From positions 28,430,150 through 28,494,149 of the forward strand of contig NC_134026.1 of the NCBI RefSeq assembly GCF_964204645.1: a stretch of 64,000 nucleotides of DNA, given 5' to 3'. The DNA is from Tubulanus polymorphus. Its lineage: Eukaryota > Animalia > Nemertea. A program made the translations under genes and the position numbers. The notes below the pieces were generated by a model. It had not been told where the DNA came from, ran no database searches, and saw only the letters and a program-made list of their open reading frames with translations. Below are positions 9 to 6,000 of the stretch, piece after piece; position 1 is the first letter of the stretch; each line of letters opens with the position of its first letter.

Positions 9-3000
9 AAAGGAAGAACGTACTCCTTGACAAACTCTTCGTCAAACCTGACAAGTGGTACACCAGCCAGTCGCATTCAGAGTGGACATGCACATTCCAT
101 GTTACAGAAACTTGTAGCTGAAACAGACAGCAAGTTTGTTGCCTTCACTGAGGAGGTAACATTTTTCTCTGCTCTATTTTGCTACTAATCATTTTCATTC
201 ATTCATTACTTGTGAAGGTAAAGGGGTTTGTTGTCGAATAAACACTATAATCCGTGTAAACTGTAGATAAATGAAGAAATCCCACACTTCGAATTTGAAA
301 TTATACTATCAACTTTATTATTACGACACCACAACGTTTCAGCTGTTGACTAACAGCCATCATCAGGTGGAATGGTGATTTGGGGGTTTGTTCATTCCTA
401 TTACAGCCTTCTGGGGACCATGTTGATCAGCTTCATGGTATAGCAGCTTGTGAGACAGCTGATGTTCTGAAGAAAAATTGGCTGAGTAAGACTTCATAAA
501 CCTCATAGTTGTTAATTATTATCTATTATAGAGCTTGAAATAGATGCTCCAGAGCTTTTCGCTCGATCTTTTCAGTTGAATTGCATAATAGTCAAGTGAT
601 GCTTGCTGGTCCTGAGTCGGCTGGATACGTCATTGTATGTGCTTCAAAGGCTGAGATTTTAGCTTGTCAGCATCAACCAGTCTGGAGAGATCGACAACTT
701 AAAGACAAGAAAACTTGGGTTGGCAGTGTAGAGGGCATGCAAGTAAGTAAATCATGCAAACTATATTATTCAAGTATGAACTGATTATATGTGCATGAGT
801 TATGTATTTTCAGTATTATGCAACAGTAGATAGAGGTATAGATGATGAAGATGTCATGTGGTTGACTGAGGAACACATTATGGACCACTCAGAAGATGAT
901 GATGAGAGTATAGCTGAGATGGCTGGAAGTGGACACTCAGTTGGTGGTGTGGTAACCGTATCTTCAGAACAGTCATGTGAGGTAATCATCATTTGGGAAT
1001 GAGTTGGTAGGATATTTATTTTTCTGTCATAATCTTTTCTAATACCGGTGCTCTGATTTTAGGATGGAGAAAACCCAAAACAACTACAACGGATCATATC
1101 TAAATGTAAATGTCATATCTTTTATGCAAGTTATAGTGAAGCAGATCCCACATCCTTTACTGAAGTTCCATTGCCGGTAACTGTCATGAAACATACTCGT
1201 CACAACAATTATCTAACAAGATGTACAAAACACTTCAAGTATTGTTTGTTTCTTTTCAAGCCAATCGAAAGCCAGAAGAACATGTTTGAGAAAGAAGAAG
1301 GCGTGGACTCACTGACTTTGCTGCACCATGACCTAAATATTTGTACCAATTCGGTATAGTAATATCACATATTACAAATGTTCAGAAATGGTTCACGTTT
1401 ATATTGAAGTAAATGTTAATTTACAGTTGCAGTACCTCATGATACTGGACCTTCTAAACAACCTTCTGCTGTACGTGGAGCCGAAGAAAAAGGTAAGTTA
1501 GGATTTTATTCTTTATTCTTTTATTTCAAGAGCGATGGCGTGAAAACTTCAATGAACATTTTATTCAAATTGTGGTTCAGTGCAGTAATAGTTTAGACAT
1601 AATTCATAATGTATATTCTCATAAAAACTAACATCTTTTCGATGACACCAGGCACAAACTGACAAATTACAATCGATGAGATTTGAACTACATCTGACAC
1701 GAATTGAAGACCAGAAAACACCAATCCTCGCCCTACAAGAGTCTCTGCGTAAAATGGTTCTCCGTCTAAGAGAATTAGAGCGTGAGTTGTACAACAAACA
1801 CCGGGAACTAGATGAAAATCCGTTCAATGAGGGGTAAGTACTATTTGATAATAACTTGATGCCCCCTTCATATCTCTTATCTTCTATGACAATTTTTCAG
1901 TTTGTTGGTCGTTAGTGGAGAACTGGAGCAGCAGATTAATGAATTAAAAGAAAAAATTGTCTCATCAAATGAGGAACTGGGAATTATGTTGAGCTGTTTT
2001 AAAGAAATGCACTTAGCACAAACTAAGGTCCAAGAAAAGACATCAAAAGGTAAGTCGGCGGTATAGATCCATTTTTTTAAAAATCAAATCAACATATTTT
2101 CATCATTTCGAAGGCAAATGTATTCTCTCCTTGAGTGCTAGCTATGTAGATTAGTATCGCCAATCTCCAACATCTAATGTGCCATTTCACTTATATGTAC
2201 AAGAATTGGCACATGGATATTGGCAACAGACTGATGGGTTTGTTCTTATTCAATTCACGTGTCACAAAATCCTAATGAGCAAGAATCAAATCTACGACCA
2301 GCACTTGCATGTGCTAATAACATAGCAAAACCAGCACAATGCAAGTTATGGTAACAGACCTGAAACAGTTCAAAAAACAGCTCAAAAGTCTCCAATCCCA
2401 GCACAGACCTGTGCTAGTATCATGAAAGAACTAGCACAAGGTATGTATCGGGATCGGAAACCATCAACATATATATATATATATATCCATTGAATCCATC
2501 CAATTGCTGTAAATTTCAAAATAATAACATGCAAGTTCAAATCTACGACCAGCACTTGCATGTGCTAATAACATAGCAAAACCAGCACGATGCAAGTTAT
2601 GGTAACAGACCTGAAACAGTTCAAAAAACAGCTCAAAAGTCTCCAATCCCAGCACAGACCTGTGCTAGTATCATGAAAGAACTAGCACAAGGTATGTATC
2701 GGGATCGGAAACCATCAACATATATATATATATATATATATCCATTGAATGATCCAATTGCTGTAAATTTCAAAATAATAACATGCAAGTTCAAATCTAT
2801 GACCAGCACTTGCATGTGCTAATAATCTATTTCACACACCAGCACAATGCAAGTTATGGTCACAGATAGTTGACTGTTTGTTAGACTGTTTCATTGTTGC
2901 CCATTCAAATCTATCACCAGCACTTGCATGTGCTAATGTAATATGGAGTAACCAGCACAATCCAAGTTATGGTGGTCCATCTGAAAGAATCCTCAAGTTT

Positions 3001-6000
3001 TAAGAAATCTCCTGTCTAGTAGATATCTATTAGCTAAGACGGTCCAACAATGACACATGAGGTTCCATTCGTGTTGTACCATGCAATAAACAAGTGCCAA
3101 CGCAAGCCTGTGATAGGGTTTTTTAACATGACCCACTCACGGACTTGCGATGGGACTTGTTTGATGCTAAAATATATTCTAGATGATGGAAATATGAACT
3201 ATCCCTAGCGCAAACCTGTGATATAGTAACTAATTCACAAAGGTTGCACCAGTAACAGTAAATATTATTTCGTTGAAGATGCCCAAGTCCAGTACGGAAC
3301 GATTATGACACATGTACATTTACAGTGAAAACTTGACTGCAGGAGAAGGTGAACTGCAATTTCCCCACAAACATGTGCTAATTTTAAATCACACACAAGC
3401 CCGATGTTTGAGGGGAAAACCTAGCCAACTAATTTTGACAATGATAGATCAGAATCTGGAGTAAATGTTAAGACGTTTTTCCCCACATACATGTGCTAAT
3501 TATCAGGAATCACAAGCTCACATATGTAGAGTCTAAAGTCATTAACAATGAGATGATGATATCACACAAAAAGGATTTTGAGTTTTGTAACTTTTGTAAA
3601 GGTCACGTCATATTCCCCCACATACATGTGCTAGTAAATACAACAACAAGCACAACAATGTCAAGGTACATGCCAATGACTAATGACACAACTTGATTGT
3701 ATTTTGACAAAAAATCATTTTCCCCACATTCATGTGCTAATATAGTCAATAAAAACCAGCACAATGAATGTAGGGTCAAAGAGTTCTGCTAATTTTGCTT
3801 TCCTGGATATAATTCACACATTTTCATTCAGACTAGCTCCAGTGCTGTGTGTACCAAAATCTATCCCCCCACATACATGTGCTAGTAACTATTTATCTAA
3901 CCAGCGCAATGAATGTAGAGGAAAATATTATGGTTTCCTTCTAAAATCAAGCAGCTTTTCAAAACTGCGTTGTTTAATATACAAACGATACCAGCACAGA
4001 CATGTGCTAATGAAATGTCTCTAACCAGCACAAAGTCTGTATTGGGTCCGATTTGTAATGCAATTAGTTGACGACAAAGATATGATGACACTGCTCAGAA
4101 CTATTTCCCCTACATATATGTGCTAATATTTTCAGCAATCAGCACAATAAATGTTGAGGACATAGATAGTCAGCTTTTCCCTGCGTGACACCTCTCCATG
4201 GTCTTTAAAGTTGTTGTCTAATTACTCTCATGAGTTCCCCTACAGTCATGTGCTACTCATGACCTGACCAGCACTAATGTCTGTAGAGAAACACAGAAGT
4301 GTTAATATCCAGATAATGATGTAACAATCCATGAAGCCTGGTTGCTGCCAGGTTGACACTTCCTGGCAGTGTAGACTGACACATTATGCCACCACCCAGA
4401 TTCTGCAGTTTCAAGATCTAGGTTCCCAGTTGCATCTAACAACATTTTTGACCTAAATTGTTTACTCTAAAGCATTTAAGTTGATGTACTTGTTATTTCG
4501 GTGTCCCCAGTACTCATATGTGCTAACTCTTTTTGTTTCATAAAGCAAGCCAATATAAGTACAAGGTACATGCAATAACTGTCCTTGCCTTCGATCCTAA
4601 AGCTGTAATGCTTATACATAGGACCGACCATATGCATAGCCTCTGCTTCTAAGATTTCCAAATTCCCTAAAATCACTGACAATTGATTAATTATGTTTTA
4701 GTTGCCACTAGGATTAAACCACAATGAAATCCTTTATGTTCTGGTCCTATTCACTAATCTTTTAGTTATGTAATAATTCTTTTTGGAATGTACTAATCAG
4801 GCCAACCATTGTAGAGAAATAGAGAACTTGCATTTTTGACTTATGACACACCCAGATATAGAGGGATGATGAGGAGAGTGACTCGTGAAAGGGTGAAAAA
4901 CCCAAATATATTGTGAGAAGATTATCCTTAAAGGATCCATATCATTAAAACTGATCTTTTATTTAAGTATAGTTTTAGGCTTATTTCAGCAACATTATTG
5001 ATACACATATTTATCTTTATTAGAATTTAGTTTTTAGTCCTAAGTTTTTTTTACCCCAGATACTATCATATATATTGAAACTCTAAAATTTCTCTAAAAT
5101 GCATTAGTTATAACTCTAAAATGTGGTGAGCTGTAGTTTTTTAGCTGTAGTAATTTAGAGAGACGTATAAAGAAGAGGTATATTAATTAAGCTAGACTTC
5201 CTAAACTACCTTGGAACAAAGATAAAGAATTGAGTCCTACATTTCTACGTTAATTTCGTTTACTTAAGTTAGATGATGTATTTTATGGTTCTCAGTTGCT
5301 CCTGGTTCTCAGTTGCTTTTTCCTAAAGTAGCCAATGTTTTTTTGTAGCCAAAGTTTTTTTTTCTTTTCCTAAGTTAACCTTCCGTGACACGCGTCTTAC
5401 CAAAAAAGTCATTAGTAAATCCTTTTTATTCCATTAGTAAATCCAATCCTTTAATCCTCAATCTGTAGTTGCCTTAGTGTGACTGGTGAAGTCTGGTGAA
5501 GTAGTGAGTTAGGTTGATGGAGTTGGTCTGGTTTTTATAGGCAGATCTCAGGACACCTGTGTGGTGTCTAGTGCCAGGCAAACTGAGATAGTTAGTGCTC
5601 AGTAAGTGACATTGTATCTCAGTCAACAATGCTACCAAACAATCCACTTGCTAATCAATTAGGCGTTAATTACTGGAAACGTTTTGTTGCTAGTGGAGCA
5701 AAGCATTGTTTGAATAATCAAGTGTGTGGACAAAACAAAACTGCAAACCTGCTTGAAGTTTGGGTTGTATATTGTTTTTCTAGTGATTAAGTAGGTCTTT
5801 TATTATTTGGAGCATATCTGTCTTTGATGGTCATTCATGAGATTGGGGACTTACTGATTAGATTATGACTGTTTTGTGTGAAATATGAACAGGATTAGGA
5901 CATGTTTGAAAAAAAACCTCTTTGTCTACTATAGTATAAGGCACCACTAAGTCTGATGACTAATTAGTATTAGTATTTACATAGATATAGATTATGAATA

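Follow-up and report, generated by a model that had tools for sequence, protein, structure and literature searches.

What is encoded by a dense series of fold-backs lying antisense in a single intron is the question raised by 64,000 nucleotides (nt) of the ribbon worm Tubulanus polymorphus (contig NC_134026.1 of assembly GCF_964204645.1, positions 28,430,150 to 28,494,149). This whole stretch is called the window below, and the coordinates are its own. The intron belongs to the BLTP2/Hobbit gene (KIAA0100), and 18 hairpins fold on its minus strand. That they form a high-copy cluster of microRNA precursors (pre-miRNAs), most of which share a seed, is well supported by structure, covariation, CNNC motifs and polymorphism, and the 18 hairpins are very probably genuine microRNA (miRNA) genes. 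The interpretation preferred here, in which we place moderate confidence, is that of a polycistronic miRNA gene belonging to an early-embryo family with an AGCAC core, present in ribbon worms, molluscs and annelids, which would repress and destabilise maternal and early zygotic mRNAs.

A hairpin cluster in a BLTP2 intron

The host intron measures 4,473 nt, from the GT at 2050 to the AG at 6521-6522, in agreement with the 4.5 kb of the original prediction. Matches to the Pfam family Hobbit/BLTP2 (PF10344) lie on either side of it at consecutive profile positions (1935-1988 upstream, a weak match, and 2045-2080 downstream); the adjoining exon at 1902-2048 has no Pfam match. The window contains 21 matches to the heptamer TAGCACA where 6.1 would be expected. 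The minus strand within 2310-4525 accounts for 15 of them; the original prediction likewise mentioned 15 copies of UAGCACA. The spacing from one 3p start to the next is 100-270 nt among the 18 hairpins, four of which derive from a recent tandem duplication at 2286-2866 (unit of 251 base pairs, 2.3 copies, 95%). At gathering score, Rfam finds only a tRNA and no miRNA in the whole window.

The predicted 3p seeds of the 18 hairpins, whose arms are named below by their first position, are AGCACAU in 13 cases, AGCACAG in 2, AUCACAG in 2 and unrelated in 1. It should be noted that the AGCACA seed initially attributed to the whole cluster holds for 15 of the 18: the arms at 3115 and 3223 carry a miR-2/K-box seed (AUCACAG) that had been overlooked and the hairpin at 2163-2225 an unrelated one. 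The high-copy cluster that was predicted stands, with mixed seeds rather than a single one.

Fold, conservation and motifs

Precursors of canonical animal miRNAs pair at least 16 nt between their arms, and their loops measure about 8-40 nt. Relative to 100 dinucleotide shuffles, the minus-strand folds of the 18 hairpins have z-scores from -2.1 to -9.8, and in 17 of them this fold is more stable than its plus-strand mirror, which bears out both the number and the strand first proposed. Between 14 and 19 of the first 20 mature nt are paired (at least 16 in 16/18 hairpins) and the predicted loops measure 7-20 nt. Canonical matures begin with U or A and vary least in the seed and at nt 13-16, and conservation in the cluster is of this miRNA type. 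All 17 family arms have a predicted 5' U. In the 13 non-duplicate AGCACA arms, nt 1-7, 13, 14 and 18 are invariant, with GU at nt 13-14 and G at nt 18, contrary to the initial view that the 3' halves diverge; loops and flanks vary freely between family hairpins. A CNNC motif lies 16-18 nt past the arm in 9/18 hairpins, the very nine for which it had been reported, compared with a background of about 8% (p ~4e-6).

In an alignment of 15 rows, both sides change in 15 of the 21 consensus pairs. Paired cells amount to 86.6% versus 69.5% in shuffles (0/500 reaching the observed value) and 30-49% when the partners are slid. In 10 of the 15 hairpins, the star arm bulges where it faces the junction of mature nt 6 and 7. 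A covariance model of the family, built from the 15 non-duplicate hairpins, recovers 17 family copies in the window, the training copies matching by construction, and no further copy of note there. Outside the window, single pattern matches in one metagenome and nine viral sequences were rejected: the family model scores none of them, the best E value being 0.14, and they are taken as chance matches.

Substitutions were taken from two contigs of run X1, covering 2827-3936 and 4003-5232, which yield 12 and 26 of them, respectively (38, all listed). Up to position 4600, they affect 0/249 nt of mature arms, 1/296 of star arms, 6/175 of loops, 5/290 of lower stems and 13/698 of spacers. Substitutions therefore avoid the duplexes (1/545 nt versus 24/1163 in the remainder, p=8e-4). 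The tally is restricted to substitutions in run X1; indels and about a dozen differences in runs X2 and X3 lie outside it. The sequence is covered by three runs of a single study, of unrecorded kind, and no RNA run was listed; run X4, guessed to be RNA, matched by two repeat pieces only, which has no bearing on expression. In the same run, the depth is 20-30 on the cluster, 35-44 on downstream unique sequence and 1,700-13,000 on nearby repeats. This single-copy-like depth, close to that of the unique sequence and far below that of the repeats, speaks against transposon termini, a possibility that the original prediction had itself raised.

Look-alikes in oyster and Platynereis

Arms resembling those of the cluster are found among the miRNAs described in oyster by Xu et al. 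2014 (PMC4138081). Clusters 19 and 20 of this paper consist of 3p-arm miRNAs (m0146 and m0148; m0314, m0315 and m0317; and, from the rejected list, m0316 and m0342), and m0314, m0316, m0317, m0315, m0146 and m0148 are tabulated in two clusters antisense to host genes. The AGCAC core is common to m0314, m0316 and m0317 (seed AGCACUU) and m0342 (seed AGCACUA), together with a signature at nt 14-20 and up to 17/22 nt of identity. Hand counts give 17/22 identical nt between m0342 and the 2416 arm, and 16/22 between m0317 and the 4525 arm. The oyster loci differ from the present one by nt 7-8 of the seed (UU/UA versus AU/AG here) and by the number of hairpins per cluster (2-4 versus 18). In the counts tabulated there, the clustered 3p arms rise from 0-6 reads in eggs to about 100-9,500 between blastula and D-larva, then fall to 0-46 at all later points, eight adult tissues included.

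In the same way, the miRDeep2 table of the annelid Platynereis (PMC12257675) contains 154 matches to UAGCAC; among the 63 listed, 2 are canonical Mir-29 and 61 are family-type. These arrays, with at least 61 tandem family-type hairpins on scaffolds 13, 15 and 24, are expressed in larvae and share with the cluster tandem 3p arms starting with UAGCAC, GU at nt 13-14 and a star ending in UGUGCUGGU. They differ by the seed, which is mostly exactly that of miR-29, and by near-identical copies spread across tens of kb. No AUCACAG hairpin lies on these three scaffolds among the 30 of 42 matches listed. The arm of scaffold_15_31836 matches the 2416 arm at 16/22 nt and the oyster m0316 at 17/22 nt (hand counts).

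A position weight matrix (PWM) was built from the arms of the window alone, with the seed excluded, and the look-alikes were scored on it by hand. The highest scores are those of scaffold_15_31836 (10.8 bits, background 1.1e-4) and m0342 (10.2 bits, 1.6e-4), followed by m0314/316/317 (6.6 bits, 1.9e-3) and the main Platynereis variant (4.6 bits, 5e-3). Canonical miR-29 (-13.1 bits) and miR-2 (-11.4 bits) are both devoid of the signature. Conversely, the nt 13-20 signature is present in 3/3 of the oyster matures other than miR-29 that start with UAGCAC, among the matches listed. Two features of the 3p arm are proposed to define an AGCAC family: AGCAC at nt 2-6 and the signature at nt 13-20. Hand counts and the profile scores both recover this combination. 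This resemblance suggests that the cluster is probably homologous to the oyster and Platynereis sets. Since look-alikes in a mollusc and an annelid share both the AGCAC core and the 3' signature, the lineage-specific status first given to the family is probably wrong.

A link between nemertean, mollusc and annelid members was not found in print; among the matches listed, the literature on the seed strings and on Tubulanus miRNAs gave nothing relevant. The MirGeneDB 3.0 supplement mentions five novel Lineus families, without sequences in the part consulted, and the family may already be catalogued in MirGeneDB for Lineus or oyster. A paper on octopus (PMC9699675) and PMC9170749 contributed nothing decisive.

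Relation to known families and competing explanations

The 3115 and 3223 arms bear on the 3p side the AUCACAG seed of MIR-2, a type of seed that fits a protostome and that miR-2 duplicates mostly retain (PMC3384581). The Rfam matches of 3115 are all below gathering (mir-43_2 E 0.0013, 25 bits versus 90; mir-11 E 0.49; mir-308 E 1.2; mir-2 E 1.3, 16.3 bits versus 45.5). The 3' halves of canonical MIR-2 matures differ, and linkage to mir-71 or to a PPP4R1 intron was not found in the window, the host being BLTP2. With MIR-29, 15 arms share the six 5' nt. The MIR-29 seed AGCACCA is absent from the cluster, whose AGCACAU and AGCACAG differ from it as had been pointed out, the 3' half of the canonical mature differs, and Rfam mir-29 gives no match up to E 10 in four scans of the cluster or its parts. 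The cluster is filed under neither family because its MIR-2-type Rfam matches are sub-threshold and mir-29 has none.

Descent from one of these families has nevertheless to be weighed. It is unlikely, in our opinion, that a local MIR-2 copy gave rise, through the series AUCACAG, AGCACAG, AGCACAU, to a lineage-specific family that later expanded, and that the look-alikes of oyster and Platynereis are convergent. The arms do form such a series (3223 and 2416 share 16/20 nt, 2416 and 4009 share 18/20), both miR-2-seed arms score on the family profile of nt 9-20 (background 0.3% and 0.9%; shuffle p 0.02 and 0.04), a tree sets 2416 and 4009 beside 3115+3223, and 3115 matches Platynereis Mir-2-oFe1 at 17/19 aligned nt with one gap, by eye. 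However, the tree support is weak (81/76, 87/78), nt 9 is C in 12/12 of the curated Platynereis Mir-2 arms listed and G in both arms here, and the nt 13-20 signature common to two other phyla is left unexplained. Read in reverse, the series may instead reflect family members that came to carry the K-box seed by convergence, rather than MIR-2 copies from which the local family arose. Even less probable is that the hairpins are divergent MIR-29 paralogues in which AGCACCA lost one C to give AGCACA. The first six shared nt, the exact miR-29 seed in at least 46 Platynereis family rows, one Platynereis copy lacking a C and the bulge of the star arm mentioned above would all fit such an origin. Yet the hand-computed score of canonical miR-29 on the nt 13-20 profile is -13, the Rfam scans for mir-29 are empty, and inspection by eye shows the same bulge in Platynereis copies with both Cs intact. 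A remote MIR-29 ancestry could be accommodated within the preferred interpretation.

Other explanations concern the function of the hairpins. A real family cluster acting in the germ line, in larval tissues or in regeneration, rather than in maternal clearance, seems to us rather unlikely. It is favoured by the oyster counts, which remain high through trochophore and D-larva (PMC4138081), and by the Platynereis reads, which come from larvae of 24-144 hours post fertilisation (hpf); it is at odds with the 0-6 reads of the clustered oyster 3p arms in both eggs and female gonad and with their normalised level, which is at or near its peak by the blastula stage. As for palindromic repeats or transposon termini without function, the recent 251-bp tandem duplication speaks for them, and the miRNA status of the hairpins is deduced from sequence. 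This explanation is very improbable given the single-copy-like depth, the strand asymmetry, the covariation, the CNNC motifs, the polymorphism pattern and the lack of any further family copy in the window.

Several points weigh against an early-embryo AGCAC family itself. Within the cluster, cut sites and expression in T. polymorphus are predictions, basal UG and apical UGU motifs each occur in a minority of hairpins, the shuffle control of covariation ignores the relatedness of the copies, and the polymorphism test rests on the assembled contigs of one other individual. The cross-phylum match concerns 22-nt arms chosen by their UAGCAC start, with the best variants retained, and the genomic background overstates its significance because miRNA 3' ends are rich in G and U. 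The target sets would overlap only partly because nt 7-8 of the seed differ. The authors of the oyster paper call the clustered novel miRNAs oyster-specific and of different origin, m0316 and m0342 are among the candidates that they rejected, and the reads of m0342 number 13 at most (PMC4138081). The oyster hosts CGI_10025557 and CGI_10028653 were not matched to a named gene; no literature on them or on miRNAs in a BLTP2 intron was found, a BLTP2 exon search yielded no match, and a search with BLTP2 representatives gave distant matches only. Finally, the Platynereis libraries pooled larval stages (24-144 hpf) and the curated Platynereis list, as given, does not include these arrays, UAGCAC being represented there by Mir-29-P1 and P2 only (PMC12257675).

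Proposed mode of action

Under the preferred interpretation of an early-embryo AGCAC family, the cluster would need its own promoter because it is antisense and cannot derive from the host transcript. A promoter near 5539 would drive an antisense primary transcript; the candidate TATAAA (5539) and the donor-like GGTAAG (5401) are each the sole minus-strand match of their motif in 4600-6500. Microprocessor (Drosha) and Dicer would then cut this single transcript into 3p guides with a 5' U, of which 13 copies would read AUGUGCU sites, 2 CUGUGCU sites and 2 the K-box CUGUGAU. The copy number would ensure a high dose. By comparison with oyster, expression could be a short burst from blastula to early larva followed by silence, and such a burst might clear maternal and early zygotic mRNAs, by analogy with the oyster timing and with Tribolium (PMC4691753). 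This clearance role is one we consider somewhat probable; an early-embryo role as such receives indirect support from the oyster look-alikes, whose reads span blastula to D-larva and all but vanish thereafter.

The family would retain nt 2-6 (AGCAC) and nt 13-20, nt 7-8 varying between lineages (AU/AG here, UU/UA in oyster, CA/CG/CU in Platynereis), so that it would be hidden from seed-based annotation. A wider proposal, to which we give slightly less credence than to its opposite, is that the cluster is the nemertean member of an ancient, unrecognised lophotrochozoan family. This spiralian counterpart of miR-430, miR-309 and miR-35 would be switched on at zygotic genome activation. Its arrays, each the product of an independent expansion, would range from a few copies to dozens, with nt 7-8 retuned in each lineage and miR-2 and miR-29 seeds sampled. 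If so, this lineage-wise retuning would be the reason why each study filed the family as species-specific.

Individual hairpins and other features of the window

The coordinates of the hairpins and of related features are given in Table 1. For hairpin 18, at the 3' end of the cluster, loop geometry and CNNC spacing make a 3p start at 2186/2187 more likely than one at 2184. If the arm (2165-2187, minus strand) starts at 2186, CNNC would sit at 16 and the seed AUGGCAC would be that of Platynereis Mir-96-P3, a 5p miRNA. In several hairpins of 2295-2973 (minus strand), the star and mature arms share a terminal GUGCUGG, so the mature arm is partly self-complementary; this may reflect the way in which the hairpin originated.

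Table 1. Positions in the window of the host intron, the hairpins and the associated candidate features.
Feature	Coordinates	Strand	Basis
Host intron of BLTP2/Hobbit (KIAA0100)	2050..6522	+	GT..AG ends, PF10344 in flanking exons
Hairpin 18, non-family; predicted 3p start 2186/2187 (seed AUGGCAC or AAUGGCA), not 2184	2163..2225	-	z -4.3; family model E 2.9
Pre-miRNA-like hairpin, predicted 3p 2316-2295, seed AGCACAU	2295..2352	-	fold, family model
Pre-miRNA-like hairpin, predicted 3p 2416-2395, seed AGCACAG; bridges miR-2-seed and AGCACAU arms	2395..2452	-	fold, arm comparison, tree
Duplicate of the 2316 hairpin, predicted 3p 2567, seed AGCACAU	2546..2603	-	fold, tandem repeat
Duplicate of the 2416 hairpin, predicted 3p 2667, seed AGCACAG	2646..2703	-	fold, tandem repeat
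Hairpin, predicted 3p 2821, seed AGCACAU	2800..2860	-	fold, family model
Hairpin, predicted 3p 2935, seed AGCACAU	2914..2973	-	fold, family model
Hairpin, predicted 3p 3115, seed AUCACAG (miR-2/K-box type)	3094..3154	-	fold; sub-threshold Rfam
Hairpin, predicted 3p 3223, seed AUCACAG; 16/20 nt shared with the 2416 arm	3202..3253	-	fold, arm comparison
Hairpin, predicted 3p 3380, seed AGCACAU	3359..3417	-	fold, family model
Hairpin, predicted 3p 3498, seed AGCACAU	3477..3533	-	fold, family model
Hairpin, predicted 3p 3633, seed AGCACAU	3612..3667	-	fold, family model
Hairpin, predicted 3p 3739, seed AGCACAU	3718..3777	-	fold, family model
Hairpin, predicted 3p 3884, seed AGCACAU	3863..3922	-	fold, family model
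Hairpin, predicted 3p 4009, seed AGCACAU	3988..4046	-	fold, family model
Hairpin, predicted 3p 4125, seed AGCACAU	4104..4160	-	fold, family model
Hairpin, predicted 3p 4255, seed AGCACAU	4234..4290	-	fold, family model
Unrelated extra fold-back, weak candidate	4317..4396	-	-27.5 kcal/mol (80-nt window); z -1.1 (standard window); no family match
First (5'-most) hairpin, predicted 3p 4525, seed AGCACAU	4504..4566	-	fold, family model
Candidate promoter for the antisense primary transcript, with TATAAA (5539) and donor-like GGTAAG (5401)	5396..5539	-	motif match only

The fold-backs at 4317-4396, 4585-4664 and 5565-5644 were left out of the count, 69 such windows being present in the 57 kb of remaining minus strand, among which 19 reach -23 kcal/mol or less. 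The weak one at 5565-5644 (minus strand), located just upstream of the candidate TATA box, has an AGCAC core on its 3' side and no match to the family model.

Other BLTP2 introns contain very high-copy interspersed repeats at 230-380 and 6720-7790, where the depth in run X1 reaches about 13,000 and 2,300, respectively; tandem units of 15 nt lie inside these repeats at 6726-6770 and 7721-7783. Further along the plus strand (11000-20750) are three tandem, apparently paralogous genes, in which two exon pairs align at 31% (E 1e-16) and 21% (E 2e-8). The exons scanned show no Pfam family above cutoff, and the first ones have a look that we take to be TIR/SEFIR-like. The region 22823-35256 includes a G protein-coupled receptor (GPCR) belonging to a Tubulanus-like expansion, a serine protease with Ig-like exons and an SLC13-type transporter. 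The GPCR gene (22823-23767) is intronless and of rhodopsin type, and all 6 of its matches at E<=1e-10 are T. polymorphus proteins with 42-61% identity. A tRNA lies at 26761-26842. Outside the cluster, the single hairpin with the highest stability (-41.9 kcal/mol, 80-nt window) lies at 33209-33290 (plus strand), in the region of the SLC13-type gene.

Comparison with known systems

If the preferred interpretation is true, named and tractable loci in oyster and Platynereis would allow a direct test of miRNA-driven clearance in Spiralia, and a deep family would have persisted with a drifting seed, missed by annotation based on seeds and on conservation. No paper naming a maternal-clearance miRNA cluster in spiral-cleaving animals was found.

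In Tribolium, multicopy fast-evolving clusters and miRNAs with an AUCACA seed have been tied to the clearing of maternally loaded transcripts (PMC4691753). Like the cluster described here, insect mir-309~6 and Tribolium mir-3851/3836 are fast-evolving polycistrons of 3p-arm miRNAs with redundant seeds, including AUCACA (K-box). Their other seeds differ, and clearance is backed there by expression and target data, whereas here it is proposed by analogy (PMC4691753).

The kind of system is already known, embryo-specific clusters that clear maternal mRNA having been described in vertebrates, insects and nematodes. Zebrafish miR-430, Xenopus miR-427 and Caenorhabditis elegans miR-35-41 each consist of tandem copies, in high number, with one seed. 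The likeness of the T. polymorphus cluster to these lies in its tandem, high-copy organisation; the seeds are unrelated and no homology is implied.

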